Source: Verrucomicrobiia bacterium
Lineage (GTDB): Bacteria > Verrucomicrobiota > Verrucomicrobiia > Limisphaerales > UBA11358
Assembly (NCBI GenBank): GCA_049280815.1
Contig: JBAPQW010000087.1
Span: 2,522-66,521, forward strand
Reading direction: 5' to 3'
DNA: 64,000 nucleotides
Positions within the stretch are counted from its first letter, which is position 1. Every line of letters begins with the position of its first letter. Positions 9,577-64,000 of the stretch are shown here, piece after piece. A program made the position numbers and the translations under genes. The notes beneath the pieces are model-generated. The model did not search any database. It saw nothing but the letters and a program-made list of their open reading frames with translations, and was not told where the DNA came from.

Positions 9577-11073
9577 ATGGAATACGAAGCGGTCATCGGC
9601 TTGGAAACCCACGTCCAGCTCAAGACGAAATCGAAGATGTGGTGCGGATGCACCAACACATTCGGCTCGCCGCCCAATACCAACGTCTGCCCCGTCTGCC
9701 TCGGCCTGCCCGGCGTGCTGCCCGTGCCCAACGACGAGGCATTGCGCCTGACGGTGCTCACCGGCTTCCTGCTGAACTGCGAGATCCCCCGCTTCGCCAA
9801 GTTCGACCGGAAAAGTTATTTCTACCCGGACATGCCGAAGAATTACCAGATCACGCAGTACGACAAGCCGTCCACCGCCAATGGCCACGTCGAGTTTGAA
9901 TTCAACGGCGGTCTGGCGCGCGTGCGCATCACCCGCGCGCACCTGGAGGAGGACGTCGGCAAGAGCACGCACTTCGAGCGCAGCAGCGGCGTGGATTTCA
10001 ACCGCGCCGGCGTGCCGCTCATGGAAATCGTTTCCGAGCCGGACCTCACCAGCGCCGACATGGCCTGCGACTATCTCAACGCGCTCAAGGACATCCTGAT
10101 TTACGGCGGCGTGAGCGATTGCGACATGGAAAAGGGCATGGTGCGCTGCGACGTGAACGTGAGCGTGCGGCCCAAGGGCACGAAGGAACTCGGCGCGAAG
10201 ATCGAAATTAAAAACATGAACAGCTTCTCCGGCGTGCGCCGCGCGCTGGAATACGAAATCCCGCGCCAGATCGAGGTCGTGTCCAAAGGCGGCAAGCTGG
10301 TCCAATCCACGCGCCGCTGGGATGATGTGGCGGGCATCACCGAGGAGATGCGCACCAAGGAGGATGCGCACGATTACCGGTATTTTCCCGACCCCGACCT
10401 GATGCCGCAGGCGCCGACGGATGCCTGGCTGGCGGAGGTAAAAGCCCGCGTGGTGGAGCTGCCGCGGGCGCGCAAACAGCGGTTCATGAAAGAATACGGT
10501 CTGCCCGCCTCTGATGCCCAAACGTTTGTATGGGACGTGCCTCTGGGAAATTATTTTGAATGCGTCGCGAAGCAGTCAAAAAATCCAAAGGCAATCGCCA
10601 ATTGGGTCATCAACAACCTCCGCGCGAAACTCGCTGAAAGTAGCAGCCGACGTGAGTCGGCTCCATCTGAAGAATCCGAGATTAGTCAGAGCGGACTCAC
10701 GTCCGCTGCGACGGGGACGACGCTCGCCGACCTCAAGTTTGCGCCCGCCACCTTGCTGGAGCTCATTGCCCTCGTCGAAGCCAAGACCATCAGCAGTTCC
10801 GCCGCCCAGCAGGTGTTCGCCGAGATGTTCGAGACCGGCAAATCCCCTGCAGCGATTGTCCAGGAAAAGGGGCTGGCGCAGGTGAGCGACACCGGTGCGA
10901 TTGAAAAATTCTGCGATGAAGCCATTGCCGCGAATCCCGGCCCCGCCGCCGATTTCCAGGCCGGCAAGGCCGCCGCGCTGAACTTCCTCAAGGGCCAGGT
11001 GATGAAACTGAGCAAGGGCAAGGCGAACCCGGCGCTTGCCGGGGAAATTCTGGAGCGGAAGCTGAAGGGTTGA
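9577..11073 (+). CDS. gatB: Aspartyl/glutamyl-tRNA(Asn/Gln) amidotransferase subunit B
   Basis: MEYEAVIGLETHVQLKTKSKMWCGC... is the canonical GatB N-terminus. The ORF-track start at 9463 only adds residues read through an intergenic repeat. The YqeY-like C-terminal domain is present. The gene carries an in-frame repeat insertion at 10640-10712. Confidence 0.95.
   Translation: MEYEAVIGLETHVQLKTKSKMWCGCTNTFGSPPNTNVCPVCLGLPGVLPVPNDEALRLTVLTGFLLNCEIPRFAKFDRKSYFYPDMPKNYQITQYDKPSTANGHVEFEFNGGLARVRITRAHLEEDVGKSTHFERSSGVDFNRAGVPLMEIVSEPDLTSADMACDYLNALKDILIYGGVSDCDMEKGMVRCDVNVSVRPKGTKELGAKIEIKNMNSFSGVRRALEYEIPRQIEVVSKGGKLVQSTRRWDDVAGITEEMRTKEDAHDYRYFPDPDLMPQAPTDAWLAEVKARVVELPRARKQRFMKEYGLPASDAQTFVWDVPLGNYFECVAKQSKNPKAIANWVINNLRAKLAESSSRRESAPSEESEISQSGLTSAATGTTLADLKFAPATLLELIALVEAKTISSSAAQQVFAEMFETGKSPAAIVQEKGLAQVSDTGAIEKFCDEAIAANPGPAADFQAGKAAALNFLKGQVMKLSKGKANPALAGEILERKLKG
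10640..10712. repeat. Double-hairpin palindromic element, subtype 1, inserted in frame in gatB
   Basis: Left arm GTAGCAGCCGACGTGAGTCGGCTC, 25-nt spacer, right arm GAGCGGACTCACGTCCGCTGCGAC. Each arm is a 6-bp-stem hairpin, and the arms are inverted copies of each other. It encodes roughly SSSRRESAPSEESEISQSGLTSAAT. Confidence 0.8.
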
Positions 11074-11115
11074 CTCAAACCATCGCCGGCAGTCACCACC
11101 CGGCGCGGGAAAGTT

Positions 11116-11134
11116 GGAATTAATTATTAATTCC
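11116..11134. promoter_or_regulatory. Perfect 9+1+9 AT-rich palindrome, candidate operator upstream of vapBC
   Basis: GGAATTAAT-T-ATTAATTCC, located 12 nt upstream of a -35-like hexamer. Confidence 0.4.
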
Positions 11135-11146
11135 TACAATTATCTA

Positions 11147-11175
11147 TTGACGGACTATTTGCACCATGCAATACT
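11147..11175 (+). promoter_or_regulatory. Sigma-70-like promoter candidate for vapBC
   Basis: TTGACG (11147-11152), a 17-nt spacer, then AATACT (11170-11175). The ATG at 11182 follows closely, so the transcript would be leaderless or short-leader. Confidence 0.35.
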
Positions 11176-11181
11176 CTGCCA

Positions 11182-11448
11182 ATGAATACGACTGAAACCG
11201 CAAACGCCGTCTGGTTCACCACCAAGGGCCAGGTGGTGATTCCCCTGCGGCTGCGCAAACAATTTCACATCGAGGACGGCACCAAGGCCATCGTGGAGGC
11301 TACCCCCGACGGCATTCTCCTGAAACCCGTCACCCGCTGGGCGATTGAGCGGGGCTATGGCCTGCTTAAACGGAAGCCCGGCAGCAAGCCGTTTGCCGAG
11401 GAATGGGCGGAGCACAAACGCGAGGAACGGGAACTGGAGGACAAGTAA
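11182..11448 (+). CDS. AbrB/SpoVT-family antitoxin (VapB-like)
   Basis: 88 aa. Swapped-hairpin motif KGQVVIPLRLRKQFHIEDGTK. The C-terminus is acidic. Its stop abuts the next start (TAAATG). Confidence 0.8.
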   Translation: MNTTETANAVWFTTKGQVVIPLRLRKQFHIEDGTKAIVEATPDGILLKPVTRWAIERGYGLLKRKPGSKPFAEEWAEHKREERELEDK

Positions 11449-11850
11449 ATGTCCGCCGCCGTTCTCGACTCGCACGCGCTGCTGGCTTTTTTCCGGGGCG
11501 AGGCGGGTGCCGCCCTCGTCAAGGATTTGCTGCACAGGGCCGCCAGCGCCGACCGGCCGCTGCAAATGACCGAGGTGAACTACGCGGAGGTGAAATACAC
11601 GCTGCTCAAAAAAGACGGCCCGGATGAATGGAACCGGGCCGCCGACATCCTGACAAGTCTACCCGTCGAATTTCATCCCGCGACCCGCCGGCTGGCCGAA
11701 CTGGCCGCTGAATTTAAAGCCCGCCACAAAATCAGCCTGGCCGACGCCTTTGCCGCCGCGCTGGCGAAGGAAAAGAAAACCGACCTCGTCACCGGCGACC
11801 CGGAATTCAAGGCGCTGGAAAAGGAAATCAAAATCATCTGGCTAAAATGA
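11449..11850 (+). CDS. PIN-domain ribonuclease toxin (VapC-like)
   Basis: 133 aa. N-terminal VLDSHALLAFF (first acidic residue), LADAFAAALA, and C-terminal VTGDPEFKALE. Size and pairing with an AbrB-type partner are typical of type II TA modules. Confidence 0.85.
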   Translation: MSAAVLDSHALLAFFRGEAGAALVKDLLHRAASADRPLQMTEVNYAEVKYTLLKKDGPDEWNRAADILTSLPVEFHPATRRLAELAAEFKARHKISLADAFAAALAKEKKTDLVTGDPEFKALEKEIKIIWLK

Positions 11851-12029
11851 TTTCGCCAAAAGCCAAAGCACTCTCGAATCACGAGATCGTTACGCTCGCG
11901 GTGTATTTGCTGGGCGGTGATTCGAAACGAATTGATACCGAAGATATTGCGGTGAAAGCTAACGAGCTTGCGCCGGGACGATTTAATTGGAGGAAATATC
12001 GTGACCAGACAGCAGCACAATTGGCGTAA
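11847..12029 (+). pseudogene. Short ORF overlapping the vapC stop (ATGA), possibly a truncated remnant of a longer gene
   Basis: 60 aa (MISPKAKALSNHEIVTLAVYLLGGDSKRIDTEDIAVKANELAPGRFNWRKY...). The N-terminal part looks globular and conserved. It then ends abruptly, followed by 125 nt of non-coding sequence. The truncation is my inference. Confidence 0.3.
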
Positions 12030-12154
12030 CCGTCCGATGGCCTGTCCGTTTGGGTAGGATGGTTCATCCACTCGACTCACAAACTCGTTTTACCATCCCG
12101 CACTGAATTCAAAAAACTTTGTTTCTTCGTTCCTTGGTGGTTTAATGATCGGGC

Positions 12155-13552: not shown

Positions 13553-13700
13553 TTCGGGAACATCGGGAGATTTCGGTCCGGCGAATCCGAGCCCGCATCA
13601 AGGTGCATTTTCAATTGGGGCTGGAAACCATGGCACGCTAATTGCGAAGAAAGCGTAAAAACATGGCCTTGCGCAATAGCCTGCGCCCAGGCCCGGACAG

Positions 13701-15539: not shown

Positions 15540-15770
15540 GGCCGGGCGCTGTTCCCCAACACGCCTTTCGACCCGCCAAGGTGGTTGCCTTGATTGCGGC
15601 CAGCGTCAATTCGAAGGTCAAACCCCTTACCCAGCCAAGTAACCGGTCTTATTTTTTCCGACGGGATGCGCTGTTTCCTTGAAAATCACAACCTCCACGT
15701 CCATGCTGAGGCTTGTGAATTGTGCCGTGGCGGTCCCGGTTAAGATGCCGTGCCGCGCGGCACAGGAAAG

Positions 15771-17123: not shown

Positions 17124-17157
17124 TCTGGCGGAGGGCCGAGTTCCATGAGGCCATGAA

Positions 17158-17212: not shown

Positions 17213-17269
17213 GGACATAAAGACTCCGGGACTCGCAGAGTTCGCTCCTTCGAAAAGCCGATTTGTTGC

Positions 17270-18478: not shown

Positions 18479-18534
18479 CCCAAAAGCTGAAGCAGCCGCC
18501 GACCCGTCCTCCGGAGTCGCGCATAGCGAAACGG

Positions 18535-18592
18535 AGGGCGGACGTGAGTCGGCGCAAACTTTTGAAGATGGGTGCGGACTGACGTCCACGGC
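18535..18592. repeat. Degenerate copy of the subtype-1 palindromic element (intergenic)
   Basis: GGGCGGACGTGAGTCGGCGC, 16 nt, GTGCGGACTGACGTCCACGGC. The arm cores GGACGTGAGTC and GGACTGACGTCC match the family, but the stems are eroded. Confidence 0.35.
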
Positions 18593-18671
18593 GTCGACCC
18601 GATTAATGCCGGGTTACTTGCGGAACCCGTTTGAAAAGTGCCAGGATGATGGCGTACTCCCAAGATTAATT

Positions 18672-19403: not shown

Positions 19404-20288
19404 TTACGATTGACGCGACTCCGTGGCAGCAGATGCCTCGTCTGCCGTAGAGCTCGGCGTCCCGCCAGACGGACTAATCGCCGGACCTTCCGGGCTGGCA
19501 GACAATCCGGGCGCATTTCCGGGCGGCAGGATGCCGCCCTCCACGGCTGGCGGGACGCCTGCCGCTACAGCGCGGGAGATTTCGATTTCGGCAAAAGGCT
19601 CTGCCTGGGCGCAGACGAGCTGGCGCAGGCGGATCAATTCCAGCAGCGCCAGAAACGTGCAGATGACTTCGGTGCGGCTGGCGGCGCCCGCGAACAACTC
19701 GACAAAGCGCACGCTGTCGCGCCCGGCCATCATTTTGAGGATGAAGTCGATTTTCTCGCTGACCGTCCATTTGTCCTCGAAAATGTCGCCCAGGTTCTCG
19801 CGCTTGTTGAAGCGCTGCAGCACGCCGCTGACGGCGTTGAGGAGGTCAAAGATGGAGACATCCGGCTTGGGCGGCGGAGTGGCTGTCTCAAATTCCAATT
19901 TGCCCGGCACCCGCGGGAAGATGTTTTCCTGTTCGGCTTCGAGCGCCTGCAGGCGCGCGGCGGCGTCCTTGAATTTCTTGTATTCCACCAGCTGCCGGAT
20001 CAATTCCCAGCGCGGATCCTCGCCTTCCTCCTCGCCTTCAACCTGCACCTGCTGATCCACCGGCAGCAGTTCGCGGCTTTTGATGTACATGAGCGTCGAG
20101 GCCATGACGAGAAATTCGCCGGCAATCTCCAGGTCGAACTGACGCATGAGGTCGATATACTCGATGAACTGCGTGGCGAGTTTGGTGAGGTTGACTTCGT
20201 AAATGTCCACCTCCTCCTTCTTGATGAGATAAAGGAGCAAATCGAGCGGGCCTTCGAAGACCTCGAACTGGACTTTGTATTCCGCCAT
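19404..20288 (-). CDS. scpA: Segregation and condensation protein A (kleisin)
   Basis: Start taken at ATG 20288: MAEYKVQFEVFEGPLDLLLYLIKKEEVDIYEVNL (canonical ScpA). The ORF-track start at 20474 adds 62 non-homologous residues. The roughly 60-aa low-complexity C-terminal tail overlaps a palindromic element. Confidence 0.9.
   Translation of the reverse strand: MAEYKVQFEVFEGPLDLLLYLIKKEEVDIYEVNLTKLATQFIEYIDLMRQFDLEIAGEFLVMASTLMYIKSRELLPVDQQVQVEGEEEGEDPRWELIRQLVEYKKFKDAAARLQALEAEQENIFPRVPGKLEFETATPPPKPDVSIFDLLNAVSGVLQRFNKRENLGDIFEDKWTVSEKIDFILKMMAGRDSVRFVELFAGAASRTEVICTFLALLELIRLRQLVCAQAEPFAEIEISRAVAAGVPPAVEGGILPPGNAPGLSASPEGPAISPSGGTPSSTADEASAATESRQS
19447..19568. repeat. Long (about 120 bp) variant of the palindromic element forming the scpA C-terminal tail
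   Basis: Read on the minus strand: GTAGCGGCAGGCGTCCCGCC...GGCGGGACGCCGAGCTCTAC. The arms are inverted copies matching over GGCGGGACGCC. It encodes AVAAGVPPAVEGG..., which resembles the AVAAPRQSAAS peptide of the purL copy. Confidence 0.5.
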
Positions 20289-21446: not shown

Positions 21447-22415
21447 ATGAAGAACGACAACGAGTTTCCCGAGACGCTGGCAAGCGCGATTAAATACTTC
21501 TCTGACGCCGACAAGGCGTTGCAGTTCATGGTTTCGATTCGCTGGCCTGACGGCAATGTGGTTTGCCCTTGCTGCCAGAAGTCCAACGTCGCCTTCCTTG
21601 AGACGCGCAAAATTTGGAAGTGCCGGGACACCAAGAAACAATTCTCCGTCAAGGTCGGCACCATTTTCGAGGACAGTCCCCTTGGTCTGGACAAATGGCT
21701 TCCCGCTTTCTGGATGATTGTAAACGCCAAAAATGGAATCAGTTCGTGTGAACTTGGCCGCGCCTTGGGTGTCACCCAAAAGACCGCATGGTTCATGCTT
21801 CACCGTATCCGGCTGGCGATGCAGAACGGCAGCATGGACAAACTTTCCGGCGAAGTGGAAGCGGACGAAACCTATATCGGCGGCAAGGCTCGCAGCATGA
21901 ACAATGCACAGCGCAGCAAGCGCGGTCGCGGAACTGGCGGTACTGGCAAAGAAATTGTCATGGGACTTTTGCAGCGGGGCGGAAAAATCAAATTGAAGCA
22001 CGTTGCAAAAGCTCGTCGCAATATCCTTCAAGCCGAAATTCGCCAGCAAGTTGAAACTGGCTCGCAGGTGTTCACCGATGCGCTTCCCTCGTACAATGGT
22101 TTGAGTCAGGATTACGTCCATGCAGCGATTGACCACGCGAAGGAATATGTTCGCGGCAATGTCCACACCAACGGGCTTGAAAACTTCTGGAGCCTGCTCA
22201 AGCGCGGGATTCGCGGGACATATATCAGCGTTGAACCTTTTCATTTGTTTCGTTACCTCGACGAACAGGCTTTCCGTTTCAACGAGCGCGAGAACACTGA
22301 TTCCGGCAGATTCCTGAAAGGCATCATCGGCATCATCGGTCGTAGGCTCCAGTACGCCAAACTCATTGGCGAACAAAGCAGATTTGCGACGTCAGGGGCG
22401 TGGCAAGCGGCGTAA
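21447..22415 (+). CDS. IS1595-family DDE transposase
   Basis: N-terminal transposase zinc-ribbon (RWPDGNVVCPCC...WKC). HTH (SSCELGRALGVTQKTAWFMLHRIR). DDE region strings EADETYIGG, VFTDALPSYNGL and HTNGLENFWSLLKRG. Confidence 0.92.
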   Translation: MKNDNEFPETLASAIKYFSDADKALQFMVSIRWPDGNVVCPCCQKSNVAFLETRKIWKCRDTKKQFSVKVGTIFEDSPLGLDKWLPAFWMIVNAKNGISSCELGRALGVTQKTAWFMLHRIRLAMQNGSMDKLSGEVEADETYIGGKARSMNNAQRSKRGRGTGGTGKEIVMGLLQRGGKIKLKHVAKARRNILQAEIRQQVETGSQVFTDALPSYNGLSQDYVHAAIDHAKEYVRGNVHTNGLENFWSLLKRGIRGTYISVEPFHLFRYLDEQAFRFNERENTDSGRFLKGIIGIIGRRLQYAKLIGEQSRFATSGAWQAA

Positions 22416-23588: not shown

Positions 23589-23664
23589 GGTGGTCGTAGC
23601 TCAACGGTAGAGTCCAAGCTTGTGGAGCTTGTTGTTGCGGGTTCGAATCCCGTCGGCCACCCCA
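23589..23664 (+). tRNA. tRNA-His (anticodon GTG) with encoded G-1 and CCA
   Basis: Manual fold. G-1 is present. Acceptor GTGGTCG pairs with CGGCCAC. D-arm GCTC-AACGGTA-GAGT. Anticodon stem CAAGC/GCTTG with loop TTGTGGA (GTG). Variable loop TTGTT. T-arm GCGGG-TTCGAAT-CCCGT. Discriminator C, then CCA. Confidence 0.93.
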
Positions 23665-37883: not shown

Positions 37884-38600
37884 ATGGATTCGCCGCACAC
37901 GCGCGCACCCGGGGCTGGCTGGCTAAATCAGGCCTGGGTCCGTGGGCTCAAGTGGTGGCCGGCCAAGTTGATTGGCGCGACCCTCGGCATGGCGTTGTTT
38001 TTTGCCGCCTATTTCTGGGTGCTGCATCACCCGCTGTTCCCCGTCACCACCATGCCGCTCACCGCGGTTGACCGGCTGATCGGTTTCCGACCGGAAGCCC
38101 TGCCGCTCTATTTGTCGTTGTGGATTTATGTGACCCTCGTGCCCGCACTGCTGGTTGATCGCCGCGAGCTCGTGTCCTATGCCCTGGCCGCCGTCGGGAT
38201 CAGTGTCATCGGTCTGGGGATATTTCTCCTGTGGCCGACGACCGTGTTTTGGCCTGACGCTGACTGGTCGCAGCATCCGGCATTTGCGTTTCTCCAGTCG
38301 GTGGATGCCTCGGGCAACGCCTGTCCTTCCCTGCATGTGGCGTTTGCCATGTTCACCTCCATCTGGCTCAACCGCCTGCTAAGGCAGATCGGCGCCGGGC
38401 GCGGCCTGCGGGCGTTCAACTGGCTGTGGTGTCTGGGCATTCTGTATTCCACGGTCGCCATCCGCCAGCATGTCGCGCTCGATGTCCTCGCCGGAGCCGG
38501 ACTGGGGGCGGCTGTCGGCGTGATGCATCTGCGCTGGCTGCGCTTTTCAGCCGTATCCATGCAGCAGAAAAACCTTTTTACCACGGATGAACACCGATGA
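37884..38600 (+). CDS. PAP2-superfamily membrane protein (phosphatase / phosphotransferase-like)
   Basis: Multi-TM protein. Motifs CPSLHVAFAM and IRQHVALDVLAG (PAP2 C2/C3-like). An alternative start is at 37845. The last codons and the stop (FTTDEHR*) lie inside an ATCCGTG-type repeat. Confidence 0.75.
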   Translation: MDSPHTRAPGAGWLNQAWVRGLKWWPAKLIGATLGMALFFAAYFWVLHHPLFPVTTMPLTAVDRLIGFRPEALPLYLSLWIYVTLVPALLVDRRELVSYALAAVGISVIGLGIFLLWPTTVFWPDADWSQHPAFAFLQSVDASGNACPSLHVAFAMFTSIWLNRLLRQIGAGRGLRAFNWLWCLGILYSTVAIRQHVALDVLAGAGLGAAVGVMHLRWLRFSAVSMQQKNLFTTDEHR

Positions 38601-38612
38601 ACACGGATAGGA
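38575..38612 (-). repeat. ATCCGTG-type short repeat (inverted orientation), overlapping the 3' end of the PAP2 gene
   Basis: The reverse complement reads cctATCCGTGTTCATCGGTGTTCATCCGTGGTAAAAAg, nearly identical to 9525-9565. Confidence 0.55.
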
Positions 38613-38694
38613 AAAGGATTTTAGGCATGCTAAGGAATTCACTGATCAGTGAGGTTCTCCAAGGCTGCGTGAAGGTTTCTTTTTCTTGTCTAAA

Positions 38695-38722
38695 TCCGTG
38701 TTCATCCGTGGTTTAAATGAAT
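38695..38722 (+). repeat. ATCCGTG-type short repeat (single unit)
   Basis: ATCCGTGTTCATCCGTGGTTTAAATG. It is inverted relative to 38575-38612, so the two copies bracket about 82 bp. Confidence 0.5.
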
Positions 38723-38807: not shown

Positions 38808-39575
38808 TTGATGGACGAACAACTGCGAACCGATTTGCCGGTGGCACCCTTGTCGCCGCATCGTCCGCTCTCCGAGTTCTACCGGGCATCGGCGGAACGA
38901 CAGCATTTTGTCAACGATCTGTTCGACGAGGCGGCGCCGGACTACGACTGGGTGAGCAGCCTGATGTCGTTTTGGAGCGACCGGTTCTATCGCCGGGCTG
39001 CTTTGCGGCGAGCCGGGTTACAGAGCGGCATGCAGGTGCTGGACGTGGCGAGTGGCACGGGATTGATGATCAAGGCCGCGCTGGAACTCGGAGTGGACCC
39101 CGCGCAGGTGACCGGCGTTGATCCCAGCCGGGGCATGCTGGCAAAGAATCGGGAACGCAACCCGGTCACGTTGCTGGAAGGCACGGGAGAAGCCCTCCCT
39201 TGTGCGGATGCTTCGTTCGATTTCGTGTGCATGGGTTACGCCCTGCGCCACGTTGAGGATTTGCGCAAGCTCTTCGGCGAATTCCATCGCGTGTTGCGGC
39301 CGGAGGGGCGGGTGTTGATCCTGGAGATCACCCGGCCAACCAGTGCGGTGGCGTTAAACTTGATGCGTTTCTACATGCAAAAGCTGGTGCCACGCCTGGG
39401 CTGGCTGCGCCGGCGGAACCGGTCCACGGCCAAGTTGATGCAATATTACTGGGCCACGATTGAAGAGTGTGTTCCACCCCCGGTCATCCTCTCGGCGCTG
39501 GAAGCCAGCGGCTTCAGGCAGGTCAAGCGCACCACCACCGGCGCGGTCTTGAGCGAATATGTAGCCAGGCGTTGA
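38808..39575 (+). CDS. UbiE/MenG-family SAM-dependent methyltransferase
   Basis: VLDVASGTGLMIKAA (motif I). LRPEGRVLILE. N-terminal YDWVSSLMSFW region typical of UbiE/COQ5-type enzymes. Confidence 0.85.
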   Translation: MMDEQLRTDLPVAPLSPHRPLSEFYRASAERQHFVNDLFDEAAPDYDWVSSLMSFWSDRFYRRAALRRAGLQSGMQVLDVASGTGLMIKAALELGVDPAQVTGVDPSRGMLAKNRERNPVTLLEGTGEALPCADASFDFVCMGYALRHVEDLRKLFGEFHRVLRPEGRVLILEITRPTSAVALNLMRFYMQKLVPRLGWLRRRNRSTAKLMQYYWATIEECVPPPVILSALEASGFRQVKRTTTGAVLSEYVARR

Positions 39576-39620: not shown

Positions 39621-39689
39621 GTAGCGGCGACTCGGTAGAGCGCCGCCATTTTGAATTCAGTCAGCGGCGGTCTGCCGACCCGCCGCTAC
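39621..39689. repeat. Double-hairpin palindromic element, subtype 2 (intergenic)
   Basis: Left arm GTAGCGGCGACTCGGTAGAGCGCCGCC, spacer, right arm GCGGCGGTCTGCCGACCCGCCGCTAC. GCGGCG/CGCCGC stems. Confidence 0.75.
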
Positions 39690-39720
39690 GGAGCAGAAGT
39701 TCTCGTCCTCGCTTATCGAT

Positions 39721-39789
39721 GTAGCAGCGGACATGCGTCCGCTCATTCTCATCCTGCGAAAGTTAGAGCCGACTCATGTCGGCTGCTAC
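39721..39789. repeat. Double-hairpin palindromic element, subtype 1 (intergenic, tandem to the subtype-2 copy)
   Basis: GTAGCAGCGGACATGCGTCCGCTC, 21 nt, GAGCCGACTCATGTCGGCTGCTAC. Confidence 0.85.
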
Positions 39790-39806: not shown

Positions 39807-40232
39807 TCAGCTTCCGCTGAGCGTCAATTCCGCCGTCAGAACAGTTTCACCGGCGACGCGGGCCGTTGCCTGCGCCTGAACCAGATTGCCGAGCCGTCCG
39901 GTGATGCGCGCTTCAAGCTGGATGATTTCGCCGGGTCTGGCGGTGCCAAGAATTTTCACATTTCGCAGCGCGGTAAGCTTCAGTCCGGCCAGCGGCGGGA
40001 TTTTCGGATCGCTTTGCGCCACCACGCCCGCCAGCTGCGCCGCCGCCTCGACGAGCAGCACGCCCGGAAAAAACGGCTGGCCGGGAAAATGGCCGCGCAA
40101 AAAAGGCTCGTCGCCGCGAACCTTGTATTCGCCTTCACCGTTTTGCCCCGGATCCAATTTCATCAGCCGGTCAATGAACCGGAACTCGGCACCGTGGGGC
40201 AGAAGACCCAAGGCTGTATCAAGATGTTTCAT
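39807..40232 (-). CDS. 3-hydroxyacyl-ACP dehydratase (FabZ/FabA hot-dog family)
   Basis: LLPHGAEFRFIDRL...RGHFPGQPFFPGVLLVEAAAQLAG (catalytic His and FabZ signature). 141 aa. Confidence 0.88.
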   Translation of the reverse strand: MKHLDTALGLLPHGAEFRFIDRLMKLDPGQNGEGEYKVRGDEPFLRGHFPGQPFFPGVLLVEAAAQLAGVVAQSDPKIPPLAGLKLTALRNVKILGTARPGEIIQLEARITGRLGNLVQAQATARVAGETVLTAELTLSGS

Positions 40233-40450: not shown

Positions 40451-41332
40451 ATGAAATCCATGACAGGTTACGGTCGCGGCGAGAGCGCCCGGGACGGCTT
40501 CAAGATCACCGTGGAGCTCAGCGCGGTGAACCGCCGGCAGACGGAAATTTCCGTCAACCTGCCGCGCGAGCTGGACATGCTGGAAACGCCGGTGCGCGAC
40601 GCGATCAACCACCACATCGCGCGCGGACGCGTGGCCGCAAGGATATCCATCCACGCCGCCGAGGGCAAGCAATCGGCGCGCGCCCACATCAATCTGCCGC
40701 TGGCCAAGGCCTACATGACCGAACTCAACCGCCTCGCCAAGCAGCTCAAACTCGCCGACCAGGTGACGCTGGATCAACTGGTCCGCGCCCCCGGCGTGTT
40801 TCAATCGGACGAGGAACTGGTCAACGCCGACAATCTCTGGCCGGTCGTGGAAAAAGCGTTGAAACAGGCGCTGGCCGCCCTGGTGAAAATGCGCGAACGC
40901 GAGGGCGCGCATCTGGCACAGGATCTGACCACCCGCACCGGAGTCATGCGGCTCTGCACCGGGCGCATCCAGAAACAGGCGCCCCAGACGGCGGAGCGCT
41001 ACCGCCAGCAGCTCGTCGAGCGCATCCAGAGCGCCGGGCTGGAATCCCCCGCGCCGGACGACGAGCGTTTGTTGAAGGAAATTGTCCTGTTTGCCGATCG
41101 CTCGGATATTTCCGAGGAATTGACCCGGCTGCAAAGCCATTTCCAGCAGTTCGAAGACTGCCGGAAATCGAAGGAGCCGGTGGGCCGGACGCTGGACTTT
41201 CTCGCACAGGAAATGAACCGCGAAATCAACACCATCGGCTCGAAAGCCAATGACGCGCTGATTTCACGCGACGTCGTTACCTTGAAGGCGGAGTTGGAAA
41301 AGTTCCGCGAACAGGCGCAGAACGTGGAATGA
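40451..41332 (+). CDS. yicC: YicC/YloC-family stress-induced protein
   Basis: MKSMTGYGRGE N-terminus. C-terminal DFLAQEMNREINTIGSKAND motif. Confidence 0.9.
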   Translation: MKSMTGYGRGESARDGFKITVELSAVNRRQTEISVNLPRELDMLETPVRDAINHHIARGRVAARISIHAAEGKQSARAHINLPLAKAYMTELNRLAKQLKLADQVTLDQLVRAPGVFQSDEELVNADNLWPVVEKALKQALAALVKMREREGAHLAQDLTTRTGVMRLCTGRIQKQAPQTAERYRQQLVERIQSAGLESPAPDDERLLKEIVLFADRSDISEELTRLQSHFQQFEDCRKSKEPVGRTLDFLAQEMNREINTIGSKANDALISRDVVTLKAELEKFREQAQNVE

Positions 41333-41409
41333 AGAAGGAAGAATGCAGAATGAAGAATGCTTCCGTCAAAACCGGTTGTCTGGTTTCTTCATTCTTCACT
41401 CTTCATTCC
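41327..41409. repeat. Imperfect long inverted repeat (GAATGAAGA-type) spanning the yicC stop; possible terminator
   Basis: Left arm GGAATGAAGAAGGAAGAATGCAGAA. The right arm's reverse complement is GGAATGAAGAGTGAAGAATGAAGAA (22 of 25 matches). The loop is about 33 nt. Confidence 0.5.
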
Positions 41410-47647: not shown

Positions 47648-48337
47648 TCAAATAGACACCCGCGCCAAAACTTCTGCCAACCGTTCCGCGGCAAACCGGG
47701 TTTGTTTCTGCAGCTTCAGCAACGCGCCGATTTTTCCCGGTGATTTGAGGACGGCCAGCGCCAGCTTGCCGTAATCCAGATTCTTGTCGGGCCTGGCCAG
47801 CTGGTTGAAATCCAGCGGCAAATCCTCGCCGGCCGTATCCGAAATCACCCGCACCGTTGCGCAGGGAATCCCGCGCTCGCGGCACACGGCATGAATCGCC
47901 GCCGATTCCATCTCCACCGCGTCCGCGCCGGTTTCAGCACGTAATCTCTTCTTTTCGGCGACGGTTGTGGCAATGCGGTCGGCGCAGAAAAACCTTGCCG
48001 GTTTCGCGCCGGCGGCGACAAATTGGTCGTAGCCGCCGACGTGAGTCGGCTCTGATTGACTTCCGATTCCAGTTTGAGCCGACTCACGTCGGCTGCTACT
48101 GGGAAAACGAGTTTCAAAAACAACCTCGCCCAGTTTCAAATCCGGGTTCAGGCCGCCGGCGAAACCACACGTCAGTACGAGTTTTGGTGAACTTGAGGGG
48201 AGCAATTCGCGCACGGCTTTTTCCGCGTTTTTCCGCCCGATACCGGTGACGAGAACGGAAACCTCCGGCCGGCCGGCCGCGATTTTCCGAAACGGCTCGG
48301 CTTCCACTTTTAGCGCGAAACAGATAAGTATAAACAT
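47648..48337 (-). CDS. PNP/UDP-type nucleoside phosphorylase family protein (HpnG-like)
   Basis: Start MFILICFALKVEAEPF. Motifs TGIGRKNAEKA, CGFAGGLNP and AVEMESAAI. It contains an in-frame palindromic element at 48029-48099. Confidence 0.75.
   Translation of the reverse strand: MFILICFALKVEAEPFRKIAAGRPEVSVLVTGIGRKNAEKAVRELLPSSSPKLVLTCGFAGGLNPDLKLGEVVFETRFPSSSRRESAQTGIGSQSEPTHVGGYDQFVAAGAKPARFFCADRIATTVAEKKRLRAETGADAVEMESAAIHAVCRERGIPCATVRVISDTAGEDLPLDFNQLARPDKNLDYGKLALAVLKSPGKIGALLKLQKQTRFAAERLAEVLARVSI
48029..48099. repeat. Double-hairpin palindromic element, subtype 1, inserted in frame in the HpnG-like gene
   Basis: GTAGCCGCCGACGTGAGTCGGCTC, 23 nt, GAGCCGACTCACGTCGGCTGCTAC. It encodes SSSRRESAQTGIGSQSEPTHVGG on the minus strand. 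Confidence 0.85.
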
Positions 48338-48403
48338 TGGGCTGCTTGGCACGGAGCGCGGACGGCTCGTCCGCGTGTTCGCGGGCAAGCTGCCCGCGCT
48401 CCT

Positions 48404-49213: not shown

Positions 49214-50953
49214 TCAAACCGGCTCGGCAATCAGGTCATAGTCCGTGTGGCCTGCGATTTTGACCCGGGCAAATTCGCCCGGCGACAATTTCCCGCGCAC
49301 GTAAACCCGGCCGTCAATGTCGGGAGCGTCCGCTTCGCCGCGGCCAATCACATAGTTGAGAGTTGAAAGTTGAACGTTGAAGGTTTGTTTGTCGCGCAGG
49401 AGGCCGTGTTCCCAGGAGGATATATTGGCCTGCTGAAGTTGCTTTTCGTTGGCCTTGCCTTCGATCAGGACTTTCAGCGTGCGGCCGACAAAGGATTGCG
49501 AAACCTGCCGGGCGATTTTGTGCTGCGCGGCCATGGCCAGCTTGCGGCGGCGCCGTTTCACCTTGTCGGAGATTTGTCCGCTCATCGCCCCGGCGCGCGT
49601 GCCGTCTTCCCTGGAATACGCGAACACGCCGAGCCGCTCGAATTTGGTTTCGCGGATGAAATGCAGCAGCGTGTTGAAGCTCGCCTCGGTTTCGCCGGGA
49701 AAGCCGACGATGAACGTCGTCCGCAAGGCGATGCCCGGCACGCCGGCGCGGATTTTCGCCAACAAATCCACGATGTATTGCTGGGACGTCTCGCGCCGCA
49801 TCCGTTCGAGCATGTTCCCGTGGATGTGCTGGAGGGGAATGTCCACGTAGCGCGCCACCTTCGGGGATTCGGCAATGGTCGAGATGAGTTCGTCCGTCCA
49901 ATGCGCCGGATGGGTGTACAGCAGGCGGATCCAGAAATCACCTTCGAGCGCATTCAACTCGCGCAACAAGGAGCAAATGGTCGTGGCATCGGCGGAAAGC
50001 GATCTGGCCGCCGCCGAAAATTTTTCCGGCGATGAAATGGCCCGGCTGTGGTTCGGCCGCAAATCGAGTCCGTAATAGGTTGAGTCCTGCGAAATCAGGT
50101 TCAGTTCCTTCACGCCATCGGCGATCAGCGCCTTCGCCTCGGCAACGATGTCCGCCTGTTGCCGGCTGCGATGCGAACCGCGCATCCGCGGGATGATGCA
50201 GAAACTACAGGGATGATTGCAGCCCTCGGCGATTTTGACGTAGGCAAAGTGTTTGGGCGTAAGACGAAATCGCGGTGTGCCGAAATCCGGGATGAAGGTG
50301 GGGCGCTGGCTCACTTCGAGCAATGGTTCATAAAGCGTAGCGGCGTCTCGGGAGAGCGCCGCCGATGTTTCCTTGGCGGACGGAATGGCGGCGCTCTGCT
50401 GAGTCGCCGCTACGACGGTTTTGGTTTTTCCGAATTTCCCCGTGCCACGAAGGGATTCCTCCTTTTCATGTTCGGCGGACGCACGATTCTTCTCCAATTC
50501 AGCCAAGCGGGAAACAACCTTTCCTTTTTGGGTTGTGGGCTTTGGACTTTGGACTTTTTCAGCGCGCCGGGCGACGGCCTGTTTGACGATATCCGACACC
50601 TGGGCGACCTGGTCGATGCCCATGAAGGCGTCCACCTCGGGCAGGAGCTTGGGCAGTTCGTCGCGGAACCGCTGCGAAAGACAGCCGGAAACGATGACGG
50701 CCTGGCCGCGATGATTCGCCTCGCGCAACTCGGCGGATTCGAGAATGGTATCCACGCTCTCCTCCTGCGCGGCATCAATGAAAGAGCAGGTGTTGACGAT
50801 GACGGCGTCAGCGGACGCGGCGTCGTTGGTGATTTCCACGCCGTCCTGGAGCAGTGCGCCGAGCATGATTTCGGCATCCACCAGGTTTTTGGCGCAACCG
50901 AGTGAAATCAGGCCGACCCGCAGCGGACGGTCAGGGGTAATCTTTTTTTTCAC
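49214..50953 (-). CDS. rimO: Ribosomal protein S12 methylthiotransferase, enlarged by internal insertions
   Basis: MTTase N-domain (LGCAKNLVDAE, NTCSFIDAA). Radical SAM AEGCNHPCSFC. C-terminal TRAM domain (...ADAPDIDGRVYV). At 579 aa it is longer than the roughly 440 aa I recall for typical RimO. Confidence 0.9.
   Translation of the reverse strand: MKKKITPDRPLRVGLISLGCAKNLVDAEIMLGALLQDGVEITNDAASADAVIVNTCSFIDAAQEESVDTILESAELREANHRGQAVIVSGCLSQRFRDELPKLLPEVDAFMGIDQVAQVSDIVKQAVARRAEKVQSPKPTTQKGKVVSRLAELEKNRASAEHEKEESLRGTGKFGKTKTVVAATQQSAAIPSAKETSAALSRDAATLYEPLLEVSQRPTFIPDFGTPRFRLTPKHFAYVKIAEGCNHPCSFCIIPRMRGSHRSRQQADIVAEAKALIADGVKELNLISQDSTYYGLDLRPNHSRAISSPEKFSAAARSLSADATTICSLLRELNALEGDFWIRLLYTHPAHWTDELISTIAESPKVARYVDIPLQHIHGNMLERMRRETSQQYIVDLLAKIRAGVPGIALRTTFIVGFPGETEASFNTLLHFIRETKFERLGVFAYSREDGTRAGAMSGQISDKVKRRRRKLAMAAQHKIARQVSQSFVGRTLKVLIEGKANEKQLQQANISSWEHGLLRDKQTFNVQLSTLNYVIGRGEADAPDIDGRVYVRGKLSPGEFARVKIAGHTDYDLIAEPV
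50337..50413. repeat. Double-hairpin palindromic element, subtype 2, inserted in frame in rimO
   Basis: GTAGCGGCGTCTCGGGAGAGCGCCGCC, 23 nt, GGCGGCGCTCTGCTGAGTCGCCGCTAC. It encodes VAATQQSAAIPSAKETSAALSRDAAT on the minus strand. Confidence 0.85.
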
Positions 50954-53946: not shown

Positions 53947-55161
53947 TTATGGCTTCTTTCCCAACAACGACGACAATTTCTCGTCCGCCTTCGCCAGATC
54001 AACCGGTTTTTCACCGGTGGTGGATTTGGCCGGTGTCCCGACGGGTTCCGTGACTCTCGTCAAGGCTTCGAGCTTGCTATCATCCACCTTCGGGGATGCG
54101 GCCATCGGTGTCACGGGTTTGGGTTGGGCTTCAGGCAGATCGGTTCGCGGCAGAGTCAGTCGTTCCAGTATTTTCTCCGCTGGCGGTCTCTCCTCAACAC
54201 CGCCGCGGAGGTAGGCCGCCACACGCGCGCCCGAAGTCGCGCCCGAAGTTTCCGCCGCTGCCTGACGCGCCTTTTGCACCACCGCGAGAAAGTAGCTCTC
54301 CAGGTTCTGCGTGGGCGTATCAATCCGGACCTTGTCCGCCGCCACGTCCTTGCGGATGATTTCCAGCACCCGCTCCAAGGTTGCCCGCGGCAACGCGGGC
54401 GTGGTGATGCGGATCGCATCCGGCGTGGCCAATAAATCCTTGAGCGTGCCCATCGCCTGGATTTTACCGCCGTAATAAATCACGACCCGGTCGCAAACGT
54501 CCTCCACGTCCGACAACAAATGGCTGCTCAAAATCACCGTCTTGCCCCGGCGCGCCAGCGCCAGAATCAAATCCTTCACCTCCCGGCAGCCAATCGGATC
54601 GAGTCCGGAGGTCGGCTCGTCGAGAATCACCAGGTCCGGGTCGTTGATCAGCGCCTGCGCCAGACCGATGCGGCGCTGCATGCCCTTGGAAAATTCGCCG
54701 ACGGAGCGCAAATGGACCTGGCTCAGGCCGACCATTTCGAGCAGTTGTTCGACCCGGCTGTCGCGTTCGGCCTTGCCCAGATGGAAAAGGTTGCCAAAAA
54801 AGTCGAGCGTTTCGCGCGAGTTGAGGTAGCGGTACAGGTAGGATTCCTCCGGCAGATAACCGATGCGCGACTTGGTCTGCACATGCCGCGGCGAATGGCC
54901 GAACACCTCGATGTGGCCTTTCGTCGGGTAAAGCAAACCCAGCAGCAATTTCACGGTGGTGGACTTGCCGGAGCCGTTCGGACCCAGCAGGCCGAACACC
55001 TCGCCACGTCGCACATCAAAATCCACGTTGTCCACCGCGCGCGCCTTGGGCCGGTTCCAGAAATCCTTGAAGATCTTCGTCAAGCCGCGAACGGACACGA
55101 CGACCTCCCCGGATTTCCGATTTTCGATTTTTGATTGCGGAGTTGGTTCGGCAACGGGCAT
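53947..55161 (-). CDS. ABC transporter ATP-binding protein with about 100-aa C-terminal extension
   Basis: Start MPVAEPTPQ.... Walker A GLLGPNGSGKST. Signature FSKGMQRR. Walker B LVILDEPTSGLD. Low-complexity Pro/Lys/Glu tail. Confidence 0.92.
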   Translation of the reverse strand: MPVAEPTPQSKIENRKSGEVVVSVRGLTKIFKDFWNRPKARAVDNVDFDVRRGEVFGLLGPNGSGKSTTVKLLLGLLYPTKGHIEVFGHSPRHVQTKSRIGYLPEESYLYRYLNSRETLDFFGNLFHLGKAERDSRVEQLLEMVGLSQVHLRSVGEFSKGMQRRIGLAQALINDPDLVILDEPTSGLDPIGCREVKDLILALARRGKTVILSSHLLSDVEDVCDRVVIYYGGKIQAMGTLKDLLATPDAIRITTPALPRATLERVLEIIRKDVAADKVRIDTPTQNLESYFLAVVQKARQAAAETSGATSGARVAAYLRGGVEERPPAEKILERLTLPRTDLPEAQPKPVTPMAASPKVDDSKLEALTRVTEPVGTPAKSTTGEKPVDLAKADEKLSSLLGKKP

Positions 55162-55181
55162 AGGGCAGAAGGTTGGGGCCG

Positions 55182-57191: not shown

Positions 57192-57196
57192 ACGAT

Positions 57197-61091: not shown

Positions 61092-61093
61092 GC

Positions 61094-62056
61094 TTAACTT
61101 AGTTCCCGTTCCTCAAACAGGGCCGTGCCGACGGCCAGCGCCGCTCCCGTGTAGGCAACCACATAGGCAAAGGCCTTGCCGACGTAGCCCCAGTGGAAGG
61201 TGCTTTTGCCCATGTCCAGGGCGTCTGCGAGCCAGAAAAGCTGCCAGTTTGGCACGATGGTGTAAAGCGTCGAAGCCCACCATTTGCCCGCTTCCGCGCG
61301 CGTGCCAAAGAAATAATCCGAGACCAGGCCGATCAAAAAGAATGCCGAGCAGATCGCCAGCGTGGCAATCGTGTCCAGCCGCGTCGAGCACGCCAGCGCC
61401 AGCGCCGCCAGAATCCACAGCGCAAACAGGATCAGGATTCCGGCCGGCACCAGCCGCCAGTCCACGTGCGCCTCCACGCCCATGGTCTGCATTTGCCGGA
61501 CGAAGTGGAAAACCAAAAAGGCCGCGAGGGTGGCGGTCACCACCAGCGCCAGGACCGCGTCACTCGCAAACGGCCGCCGCAGGAAAAAATTGCTGAAGCC
61601 CGCCAGCGCGTAAGCCACCAGCACCCCCGCCGCAAAAATGCCGAGCGCGGGCAGATTGGTCTTGCCATAGGCATCGAACGACATCCAACTGGCGAGCAGC
61701 ACCCCGATGAGGTTGACATAGGCCAGCAGCGTCAGGGCGGCGGCAAGTCCCGCATATTTGGCCAGAAAAAACTGCGCCCGACCGACCGGCTTCGACAGCA
61801 CCGCCAGCGCCGTGCCGGTGCGGATTTCACGCGCCAGCGACGCCGACGCGCTCAACACCGCGCCGAGCAGTCCTGACAGCAACATCACCGCCAACGCACT
61901 GGTGGCGACCAGTTTTGGTTCGTCCCCCAGCGCAAAATAATAGGGCACGGCCAGAAAAATCTCAAACAGCACGGACACCGTCATCAGCAGCAGGAAAACC
62001 GGCTGCCGGATGAGTTCCATGAAGGCATTGGTGGCGATGGTTAAAAATTGTCGCAT
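61094..62056 (-). CDS. ABC-2-type permease-like membrane protein
   Basis: Six to eight TM helices. Motif LAREIRTGTALAVLSKPVGRAQFF, shared with the 52542-53927 permease. Confidence 0.7.
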   Translation of the reverse strand: MRQFLTIATNAFMELIRQPVFLLLMTVSVLFEIFLAVPYYFALGDEPKLVATSALAVMLLSGLLGAVLSASASLAREIRTGTALAVLSKPVGRAQFFLAKYAGLAAALTLLAYVNLIGVLLASWMSFDAYGKTNLPALGIFAAGVLVAYALAGFSNFFLRRPFASDAVLALVVTATLAAFLVFHFVRQMQTMGVEAHVDWRLVPAGILILFALWILAALALACSTRLDTIATLAICSAFFLIGLVSDYFFGTRAEAGKWWASTLYTIVPNWQLFWLADALDMGKSTFHWGYVGKAFAYVVAYTGAALAVGTALFEERELS

Positions 62057-62186
62057 GTCGAATGTCAGCCGAAAGATTAGTTATCCTGCGGCTGATTGCC
62101 AACGGTTAAACCATCTGAAACGCGGGTCATACTCGAGTTTTCAGGGAAATGGAGCGTCCGGCAGGTGATTTTGTTCAAAATAACCG

Positions 62187-64000
62187 TCACGCCATCGCCC
62201 GCGCGATGCTGTTCCACCAGGCGTCGTGCAATCCCGTAAGCGGCGCACTGAATTCGCCGGCGGCGGTTTTAATGGTCAATTGGTCGCCGCCAACCCTGCC
62301 AATCAGCCCGGCTGGAACCCCCATCAACCTGGCCCGCTCAACCACTTTCACCGCGTCGAGCGCCTGACAGCTGATGACCACGCGGCTTTGCGTCTCGCCA
62401 AAAAGCAAGGCATCCAACCGCACCGTGGCGGCGTCTCGGGAGAGCGCCGCATTCTCTTCTTCGGACTGACTGGCGGCACTCTGCCGAGGCGCCGCTACAG
62501 CAGAAAGATCAATTTGGGCGCCGATCAATCGCGGCGTCTCGCGCGCGATGAGCTGGCTGATGCAGCTTTCGGCCAGGCAAACCGCCAGACCGCCTTCGCT
62601 GCAATCGTGGGCGCTGCGCACCAGGCCGGATTGAATCAGCCCAAGCAAAGTCGTGTGCAGCGTGCGCGCCTTTTCCAAATCGCAACGCGGCGGGCTGCCA
62701 TTCTTTTGCCCGTGAATGACCTGCAAATACGCGCTGCCGCCCAAGCCTTGCAACGGATCGCCCGGATCCACCGCGCTGCCCAGCAAAATGACCGCGTCGC
62801 CTTCGTCCTTGAACCATTGCGTCGTCACGTGCTCCAGTTTTTCAACGATACCAACCACCGCGACGGTTGGCGTGGGGTCAATCGGTCCGGCCGGGCTCTG
62901 GTTATAGAGCGAGCAATTGCCGCCGGTGACCGGGGCATTGAACGCCAGGCATGCCTCGGCCAGGCCGCGCACGCTTTCCTTGATCTGCCAGAACAGCTCC
63001 GGTTTAAGCGGGCTGGGCATGTTCAAATTGTCGGTCGTGCCCAGCGGCACCGCGCCGGAACAGGCCAGATTGCGGCACGCCTCCACCATCGCCGCCTTCG
63101 CGCCTTCATAGGGATCGAGATAAACGTAGGTGCCGTTGCAATCGACCGTCAGGGCGATGAGTTTTTCCGGCGTGGCCTGGCCGTTCAGCTCGGGTAATGA
63201 ATCGCCCTTGATGCGCAACACCGCCGCATCGCTGCCCGGACAAACCACCGAACCATCACGCACCATGTGATCATACTGGCGATAAACCCAGTTTTTCGAG
63301 GCAATCGTCGGCCACGCAAGCAGTTTCATGAGATCCGCTTTGGCATCCCGGGTCTCGGGAATGCCGTCCAACCGGAACGCGCGAACAGCCTGCAAATACT
63401 CCGGTTCCTTGGCCTTGCGATGATAAACCGGCGACTCATCCGCAATTTTTTTGGCCGGGATATCGGCGACGACCTGGCCGTGATGCCTCACAACCATGCG
63501 GCCGGTATCAGTGACCACACCGACTTCCGACCACGGCAGATCCCATTTGTCAAAAATGCGCTTCACCTCGGCCTCGCGGCCTTTGTGGACGATGATCAGC
63601 ATCCGCTCCTGCGATTCCGAGAGCATGATTTCGTAGCTGGTCATGTTCGGCGCGCGCTGCGGCACCTTGTCCAATTCGATCTCGATGCCCGTGCCGGCGC
63701 GGGCGGCGGTTTCACAGGTCGAACAGGTCAGGCCGGCCGCTCCCATGTCCTGAATGCCGGCGACCGCGCCCGTGGCCAGCAGTTCGAGGCAGGCTTCGCA
63801 AACCAGTTTTTCCATGAAGGGATCGCCCACCTGCACCGCACCGCGTTGCTGCTCCGCGGATTCCTCGGTCAAATCCTGCGATGCAAAGGCCGCGCCTGCA
63901 AGACCATCACGACCCGTGGCCGGACCGACGTAAAACACCGGATTGCCGAGGCCCTTGGCCGCCCCGCGCGCGATTTGTTCATGCCGGAGAACGCCAAGGC
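62187..64000 (-). CDS. purL: Phosphoribosylformylglycinamidine synthase subunit II, 5' end beyond the window
   Basis: The reading frame stays open upstream of the ORF-track start to nt 64000 (...GLGNPVFYVGPATGRDGLAGAAFAS...). PurL strings VQVGDPFMEKL and DCNGTYVYLDPYEGAK. It carries an in-frame repeat at 62425-62498. Confidence 0.93.
   Translation of the reverse strand, partial: LGVLRHEQIARGAAKGLGNPVFYVGPATGRDGLAGAAFASQDLTEESAEQQRGAVQVGDPFMEKLVCEACLELLATGAVAGIQDMGAAGLTCSTCETAARAGTGIEIELDKVPQRAPNMTSYEIMLSESQERMLIIVHKGREAEVKRIFDKWDLPWSEVGVVTDTGRMVVRHHGQVVADIPAKKIADESPVYHRKAKEPEYLQAVRAFRLDGIPETRDAKADLMKLLAWPTIASKNWVYRQYDHMVRDGSVVCPGSDAAVLRIKGDSLPELNGQATPEKLIALTVDCNGTYVYLDPYEGAKAAMVEACRNLACSGAVPLGTTDNLNMPSPLKPELFWQIKESVRGLAEACLAFNAPVTGGNCSLYNQSPAGPIDPTPTVAVVGIVEKLEHVTTQWFKDEGDAVILLGSAVDPGDPLQGLGGSAYLQVIHGQKNGSPPRCDLEKARTLHTTLLGLIQSGLVRSAHDCSEGGLAVCLAESCISQLIARETPRLIGAQIDLSAVAAPRQSAASQSEEENAALSRDAATVRLDALLFGETQSRVVISCQALDAVKVVERARLMGVPAGLIGRVGGDQLTIKTAAGEFSAPLTGLHDAWWNSIARAMA
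62425..62498. repeat. Double-hairpin palindromic element, subtype 2, inserted in frame in purL
   Basis: GTGGCGGCGTCTCGGGAGAGCGCCGC, 21 nt, GGCGGCACTCTGCCGAGGCGCCGCTAC. It encodes VAAPRQSAASQSEEENAALSRDAAT on the minus strand. Confidence 0.85.

Follow-up and report, generated by a model that had tools for sequence, protein, structure and literature searches.

We analysed a 64,000-nt stretch (the window) of contig JBAPQW010000087.1 from the Verrucomicrobiia bacterium assembly GCA_049280815.1 (order Limisphaerales). It has a G+C content of about 60% and contains six intact copies of a palindromic element of about 70 nt, which we call here REP doublets because they are probably repetitive extragenic palindromic (REP) sequences. 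Each copy consists of two inverted arms, each of them a small hairpin in its own right, and the arms belong to one of two subtypes. In subtype 1, one stem pair is either C-G or G-C, and a doublet that combines one arm of each type is referred to as a heterodimer. Four of the six intact copies are intragenic. The doublets (given without strand) and the genes that hold four of them are as follows.

10640-10712, no strand assigned, subtype 1 REP doublet inside gatB; heterodimer
39621-39689, no strand assigned, subtype 2 REP doublet, intergenic
39721-39789, no strand assigned, subtype 1 REP doublet, 31 nt from the subtype 2 copy; heterodimer
48029-48099, no strand assigned, subtype 1 REP doublet inside the HpnG-like gene; both arms of the C-G type
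50337-50413, no strand assigned, subtype 2 REP doublet inside rimO
62425-62498, no strand assigned, subtype 2 REP doublet inside purL
9577-11073, plus strand, gatB (Pfam GatB_N and GatB_Yqey), encoding a 498-aa protein
47648-48388, minus strand, HpnG-like phosphorylase gene, holding a subtype 1 doublet
49214-50953, minus strand, rimO (NCBIfam equivalog), holding a subtype 2 doublet
62187 to beyond 64000, minus strand, purL, cut by the window end, holding a subtype 2 doublet

Subtype 1 arms read GTAGCAGC[C/G]GACGTGAGTC[G/C]GCTC, that is, a GTAGC head followed by a 7-bp stem and a 4-nt loop, while subtype 2 arms read GTAGCGGCG-N-CTC-GGNA-GAG-CGCCGC and form a 9-bp stem with one bulge. The outer tetranucleotide is GTAG, GTGG or GTCG in all 12 arms of the intact elements. 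In every doublet the arms are inverted with their heads outside, separated by spacers of 17-25 nt; in the gatB copy, for instance, the left arm has the stem GCCGAC/GTCGGC and the right arm GCGGAC/GTCCGC. When folded as single strands, all six intact elements were far more stable than shuffled sequences (z from -5.1 to -10.7), and their minimum-energy fold is a long arm-to-arm hairpin. The pattern GTAGC-N50-80-GCTAC occurs four times in the 64-kb window against 0.15 expected. A scan of the window with arm profiles recovered all 12 arms (E 4e-7 to 4e-5) and, beyond these, nothing comparable except a decayed copy at about 18492-18600. Rfam searched at gathering thresholds matched only a tRNA in the window, with no known RNA family over the elements. 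The two neighbouring intergenic copies (39621-39789) lie between convergent genes, a ubiE-like methyltransferase gene (38808-39575, plus strand) and a FabA-like gene (39807-40232, minus strand).

An earlier note on this DNA had counted at least nine copies. The six intact copies of the two named subtypes stand at the positions it gave, and the figure of nine is reached only by pooling them with a remnant and with doublets of other kinds, listed below.

18492-18600, no strand assigned, decayed subtype 1-like remnant (arm fragments at 18538-18553 and 18574-18592), intergenic, downstream of a gene for a Cys/Met pyridoxal-phosphate enzyme
19446-19568, no strand assigned, doublet of a third GTAG family (arm GTAGCGGCAGGCGTCCCGCCAGC) with a long spacer, in the scpA tail
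48353-48402, GGAGC-headed doublet of two small hairpins 4 nt apart, located at the start of the HpnG-like gene or directly upstream of it

The GGAGC-headed doublet could represent a terminator or a further repeat family.

As the note had claimed, the open reading frames of gatB, the HpnG-like gene, rimO and purL run uninterrupted through their elements, and the inserts amount to 25, 24, 26 and 25 residues, respectively. The gatB doublet encodes SSSRRESAPSEESEISQSGLTSAAT (residues 355-379), located in the linker that joins the helical domain to the C-terminal YqeY/tail domain. In the HpnG-like protein the insert is SSSRRESAQTGIGSQSEPTHVGGY (residues 97-120), with the two arms translated in different frames; RimO carries VAATQQSAAIPSAKETSAALSRDAAT (residues 181-206) and PurL VAAPRQSAASQSEEENAALSRDAAT. 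A peptide that spans an insert junction is exemplified by LAESSSRRESAPSEESEISQSGLTSAATGTTLADLK. The translations also agree with the proposal that, owing to the palindrome, similar peptides arise whichever way the element is oriented. A fifth copy had been suggested to form the tail of ScpA. Most of the 53 C-terminal residues of ScpA past the end of the ScpA profile are indeed encoded by a GTAG doublet, but it is of neither subtype 1 nor subtype 2 and represents the third GTAG family listed above. In the AlphaFold model of GatB the insert (residues 356-381) is disordered, with a predicted local distance difference test (pLDDT) score below 50; the model is poor overall (mean pLDDT 56.6), and the disorder is only weakly suggestive of a surface linker. 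We also considered a special avoidance of stop codons in the elements and dropped it: by our own estimate, two open frames out of three are about what is expected at 60% G+C.

Related DNA was collected as stretches of 8 kb, labelled L001 and so on. An exact-pattern scan with the subtype 1 arm returned at least 119 stretches, nearly all from Verrucomicrobiota metagenome-assembled genomes (MAGs) and a few with other labels, and a scan of metagenome contigs with the subtype 2 arm returned at least 120. GatB and RimO homologues at 80-93% identity were assigned to Limisphaerales, Verrucomicrobiia or Verrucomicrobiota. Several MAGs contribute three to five separate loci, and the window itself has its six intact copies in 64 kb; the two subtypes were found together on the same contigs. 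Among the matches listed, 182 of 229 subtype 1 arms pair up into 91 head-out doublets. On L075 (85-502), three subtype 1 doublets stand in tandem with a 174-nt period and similar flanks, a clustered arrangement like that of bacterial interspersed mosaic elements (BIMEs). Eleven stretches with verrucomicrobial REP arms (L018, L023, L033, L034, L037, L041, L051, L070, L078, L107 and L109) are titled Bifidobacterium, Bifidobacteriaceae or Klebsiella; the taxon labels of these MAGs are probably wrong, or the bins mixed.

The 229 subtype 1 arms from other genomes, which had been retrieved without demanding stem complementarity, showed C-G at stem positions 9/20 in 122 cases and G-C in 101, with only 6 non-complementary. 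Over the whole 7-bp stem, 93.6% of positions were paired in 74 distinct arms, with compensatory changes in six of the seven pairs; no shuffle or slid register matched this pairing. G1, T2 and G4 of the head are each conserved in at least 90% of the same 74 arms. For subtype 2, the 9-bp bulged stem was paired at 95.4%, above shuffled and slid controls, with compensatory changes in three of the nine pairs. The compensatory stem covariation postulated earlier is thus confirmed. Heterodimers account for 71 of the 91 doublets vs. about 50% expected (p 3e-10), a combination that puts two mismatches into the long hairpin. In the BIMEs of Escherichia coli, Y and Z REP variants alternate in inverted orientation, and the two arm variants described here can be likened to these.

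To count a doublet as intragenic we required an open frame of no fewer than 150 codons, 30 or more of them on either side of the doublet. By this definition, 51 of the 91 subtype 1 doublets in relatives (56%) are intragenic, vs. 75.6% of 70-nt segments drawn at random from the same loci, which indicates that coding DNA is only mildly avoided. All ten host frames checked by Pfam proved to be real genes, encoding UvrA (two), MutS (two), HrpB, a DEAD helicase, an E1 dehydrogenase, a glycoside hydrolase, an M28 peptidase and a FabA-like protein. In an exploratory comparison of intragenic heterodimers, the G-C arm was the 5′ one on the coding strand in 30 of 41 (p 0.004). E. coli REPs are known as extragenic elements, and REP doublets forming hairpins (REPINs) are reportedly treated in the REPIN papers as extragenic elements of Pseudomonas and enterobacteria. 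With their intragenic share in the window (4/6) and in relatives (51/91), the elements described here depart from the REPIN criterion of extragenic location. Among the hosts in relatives, uvrA (L001 and L011) and mutS (L062 and L084) hold subtype 1 doublets, two each being present on L001, L011 and L084, and the L011 contig has one subtype 2 doublet in addition; these copies are reminiscent of the published finding that intragenic REPs are enriched in DNA-repair genes.

Comparison with homologues revealed that the GatB insert is absent from solved GatB structures, as are the RimO and PurL inserts from solved homologues of these proteins; the latter two are located in extra segments whose alignment with the solved homologues is limited to short stretches of these. 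The GatB insert is common to many species-level relatives. Across 120 GatB homologues, the same linker holds differing inserts of about 24 residues, and the DNA of five relatives contains five different GTAG...CTAC doublets in this linker, which start after different linker residues. Among close RimO homologues most carry the subtype 2 insert, while others have no insert or an unrelated short sequence in its place, and some have further palindrome-derived inserts at another site. The proposal that the inserts are lineage-specific, for which an alignment of orthologues had been asked, is therefore upheld by their absence from solved GatB, RimO and PurL homologues and by presence/absence or replacement among close orthologues.

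RimO has a second extra segment. Residues 300-326 (window 49976-50056) are extra relative to Thermotoga maritima RimO and are conserved in 120 of 120 close homologues. The DNA forms a weak GTGG-headed hairpin (49983-50013), and the peptide SAAARSLSADATT is reminiscent of the subtype 2 arm peptide. The segment may be an old, domesticated REP insert.

Evidence of spread came from the spacers and the flanks. Three loci of one MAG (L029, L081 and L090) hold doublets whose spacers are 100% identical although their flanks are unrelated, and similar sets were seen in other MAGs, which indicates that the whole doublet is copied as a unit. At the outer ends, pyrimidines predominate directly 5′ of GTAG (85% of the doublets) and purines directly 3′ of CTAC (77%). 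Direct repeats of 2-9 nt at the junctions, as expected of target-site duplications, were present only at chance level in the 91 doublets.

A candidate enzyme was identified on five related contigs (L107, L178, L204, L225 and L244), where genes resembling those of REP-associated tyrosine transposases (RAYTs) are directly flanked by subtype 2 arms or doublets. The arrangement that defines a REPtron, a RAYT gene flanked by the same REPs, thus exists for subtype 2 in related genomes. The L225 gene is frameshifted; that of L244 lies on a 3.5 Mb contig, and a REP provides its stop codon. The nearest case for subtype 1 is on L100, where a RAYT homologue (about 51% identical) stands between copies of a sister family; the arm of this family is 3/24 positions off subtype 1, and the same family is the GatB insert in L240. 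A profile built from four of the RAYT-like proteins found 3073 homologues, many of them named 'REP element-mobilizing transposase RayT' by JGI and NCBI, and the best 120 of the 3073 matches are almost only of the subtype 2-associated clade. The over-called N-termini of many homologues are translated subtype 2 arms. The proteins match NCBIfam NF047646 (REP_Tyr_transpos, 'REP-associated tyrosine transposase') at E 1e-11 to 2e-14 (44-54 bits), and the HUH motif (D-H-L/V-H) and Y-x3-N-P are conserved in them. An AlphaFold model (pLDDT 87) gave as its best match in the PDB the E. coli REP-associated tyrosine transposase TnpA-REP bound to a REP hairpin (4ER8; E 1.6e-7, target-normalised TM 0.69), followed by the TnpA proteins of IS200, IS608 and ISDra2.

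Taken together, these data make it likely that the elements are REP sequences of the GTAG type, paired in inverted orientation as head-out doublets (REPIN-like, or BIME-like 'HH' dimers) and mobilised in trans by a RAYT. An arm is a GTAG(C) head with a short G+C-rich hairpin, and two inverted arms around a variable spacer of 10-40 nt make up a doublet, usually a heterodimer with one compensatory stem pair differing between the arms. According to this model, the doublets would be non-autonomous. A RAYT of the IS200/IS605 type (HUH/Y1 enzyme), encoded elsewhere in the genome, would recognise GTAG and the hairpin in single-stranded DNA and copy or move the doublet without target-site duplication. 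The sequence is G+C-rich and open in two of its three frames, with codons giving small polar residues (Ser, Ala, Arg, Glu and Thr). A copy landing in a flexible linker or loop and adding a net multiple of three nucleotides would be tolerated and translated as an insert of 24-26 residues, becoming a lineage-specific protein segment. Other copies are found, as are classical REPs, at the 3′ ends of genes that converge. That such an enzyme mobilised the window's own copies and subtype 1 in general is our inference from the subtype 2 REPtrons, and the inserts are presumably translated and near-neutral.

Several results weigh against mobilisation by a RAYT, or at least complicate it. Motif and phmmer searches found no RAYT gene in the 64-kb window, and no RAYT flanked by subtype 1 was present in about 1.5 Mb of related DNA. 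The RAYT clade scores under the NCBIfam trusted cutoff (80 bits) and has no Pfam match. The GTAG-to-CTAC lengths fall into all residues modulo 3, in intragenic and other copies alike; a fixed length of the mobile unit is ruled out by this. The spacers of the three subtype 1 copies in the window are mutually unrelated, and none of these copies is therefore demonstrably recent. Finally, a majority-intragenic location is atypical for REPs.

The closest described elements are the GTAG-tagged REPs surveyed by Di Nocera, De Gregorio and Rocco (2013, BMC Genomics 14:522; PMC3733652), which comprise sub-families with complementary stems, head-out and tail-out dimers, heterodimers, REPs between convergent genes and REPs flanking RAYT genes. 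The elements analysed here share with them the GTAG head and G+C-rich stem-loop of 6-9 bp, the alternative complementary stem residues, head-out dimers (heterodimers included) with spacers of 20-100 nt, copies between convergent genes, and REPtrons. In that survey intragenic GTAG REPs were most numerous in Opitutus terrae, a member of Verrucomicrobia, where dimers encode 20-30 residues; the supplementary table has 70 intragenic listings for this species, including purL (two dimers), uvrA and helicases. Thus phylum, length of the coded segment and hosts (purL, uvrA, helicase genes) are all shared with the present set. The authors also reported that recB of two Xanthomonas species has different REPs at about the same site, and the occurrence of different REPs near one gene site in related species is a further likeness. 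The phenomenon is accordingly already known in the phylum and no new kind of element is involved; the earlier suggestion that an in-frame palindromic family would be new to this lineage is superseded by the 2013 publication. There are differences as well. The O. terrae families, as far as their peptides are readable in the published material (VGPALAAG, GTGVPPV, VAGVADPG), have arm sequences unlike those described here. The order is another one (Limisphaerales/Pedosphaera-type MAGs), over half of the sampled doublets are intragenic, and the HH spacers are variable, whereas conserved HH spacers are the rule of thumb in PMC3733652.

With the REPIN-RAYT system (Bertels and Rainey, 2011; PMC3116915) the elements share the two inverted REPs around a short spacer, the size of about 70 nt, the long hairpin, the whole doublet as the replicating unit and an associated RAYT flanked by the REPs; they differ in that many copies are in frame inside genes and that the RAYT clade is divergent. 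E. coli REP/BIME and TnpA-REP have in common with them the GTAG head followed by a hairpin and, for the enzyme, the RAYT fold and HUH/Tyr motifs, at about 18% sequence identity. In the later REPIN literature found by our search, the word 'intragenic' is never used.

The earlier note had pointed instead to the Rickettsia palindromic elements (RPEs) as the closest precedent. Like the elements described here, RPEs are palindromic repeats in frame in housekeeping genes, giving short, probably surface-exposed, lineage-specific segments. The 24-26-residue inserts do resemble this phenomenon, and no cognate RAYT was found for subtype 1, as would be expected of an independent family of selfish in-frame palindromes that has no dedicated transposase and is unrelated to REP/RAYT. 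The two groups are, however, set apart by the classification in PMC3733652, where the intragenic repeats of R. conorii, RPE-4 and RPE-6, are placed among a CGTC-tagged superfamily that, according to the conclusions of that paper, is apparently without dedicated transposase; RPE-1 is longer. No relation in sequence to RPEs is apparent, no direct comparison with them having been run. The elements studied here have a GTAG head with a hairpin rather than the CGTC tag, measure about 70 nt and are associated with RAYTs, subtype 2 flanking RAYT genes on five contigs and a sister family of subtype 1 flanking the L100 gene. Head, stem-loop, inverted-doublet layout and RAYT flanks are those of REPs and REPINs, and an independent RPE-like family is improbable.

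About equally unlikely is that the hairpins are maintained by the host for mRNA stability, termination or the binding of gyrase or a nucleoid protein, so that function and not mobility would lie behind their conservation. Some results would agree with it: in 63 GatB orthologues with a subtype 1 insert, the arm-encoded columns are conserved at 0.86 and 0.90, vs. 0.53 for the spacer and 0.94 for the protein average, and the intergenic copies lie between convergent genes, as do functional REPs (PMC3733652). Such a role leaves unexplained why identical doublets occur at unrelated loci, why other families replace the insert at the GatB site and why the elements are associated with RAYT genes. It is compatible with REP/RAYT mobility as a secondary role alongside it rather than an alternative to it.

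We consider it very unlikely that the elements are miniature inverted-repeat transposable elements (MITEs) of a DDE insertion sequence (IS), with the arms as terminal inverted repeats served by a classical transposase such as the IS1595-type enzyme encoded at 21447-22415. The inverted arms, the size of about 70 nt and the presence of a DDE transposase within the window would fit, but duplications of the target site are not above chance in the 91 copies, the individual arms are conserved hairpins with a GTAG head and covarying stems, RAYT genes are linked to subtype 2, and the arms were not seen at IS ends, no systematic search for matches to such ends having been made. That the segments are ancestral protein sequence with incidental palindromy at the DNA level, as the spread of the GatB insert through many species-level relatives and the conservation of RimO 300-326 in 120/120 close homologues might suggest, is extremely improbable given the same 70-nt sequence in unrelated genes and intergenic DNA, the absence of the segments from solved homologues, their presence/absence in RimO and the five different palindromic families at the GatB site. 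All these explanations rank below REP doublets mobilised by a RAYT because they account less well for the junctions, the head motif, the RAYT flanks and the polymorphism.

Starting from REP/RAYT mobility, we tentatively propose, as a possibility that is itself doubtful, that REPIN populations in this verrucomicrobial clade have shifted largely into coding sequence, that linkers such as the helical-to-tail linker of GatB serve as landing sites recolonised by successive REP families, and that, within essential genes, constraint or RAYT-linked homogenisation preserves the arms over long periods. Perhaps an existing hairpin attracts the next insertion at the linker. If true, REPINs would continually add to the diversity of linkers and loops in housekeeping proteins, and coding sequence would be a persistence niche outside current REPIN population models. 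The most novel points are quantitative, namely the majority-intragenic distribution, the recolonised linker hot spots and the conserved arms within essential genes. The analysis extends a little-cited observation of in-frame REPs from one Opitutus genome to a broad range of uncultured Verrucomicrobiota and adds defined REP families, a divergent RAYT clade that matches them and clear essential-gene examples. On the practical side, proteins become longer through the inserts, which can lead to errors in orthology assignment, domain models and start-site calls; the inserts are also useful as strain-typing markers and represent a natural experiment on the tolerance of proteins to 25-residue additions.

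Other repeats and a possible mobile region were also observed in the window. An inverted repeat of 24 nt (ACCACGGATGAACAC...) with a 95-nt spacer occupies 38575-38717, in the intergenic gap before the ubiE-like gene, and the region includes a 10-nt tandem repeat at 38582-38608. Between 20300 and 24700 the G+C content falls to 0.42-0.55 vs. about 0.60 elsewhere; the ORF of an IS1595/ISXO2-type DDE transposase (21447-22415, plus strand; Pfam 2.5e-41) lies there next to a tRNA gene (23590-23661), and the stretch probably represents a small island or an IS. Tandem repeats of heptanucleotides (3-5 copies each) were found at 41327-41359, 41385-41408 and 55112-55136, with two more inside rimO (49354-49385 and 50536-50557). 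At the C-terminal heptamer site, RimO homologues have differing peptides that resemble seven-residue repeats (QLSTLN.., IRNPQSA.., ELRTPNS.., SRHSSPVTRH). As read from the homologue peptides rather than from DNA, this would fit different heptamers in each lineage at the RimO site, a second class of lineage-specific coding insert.

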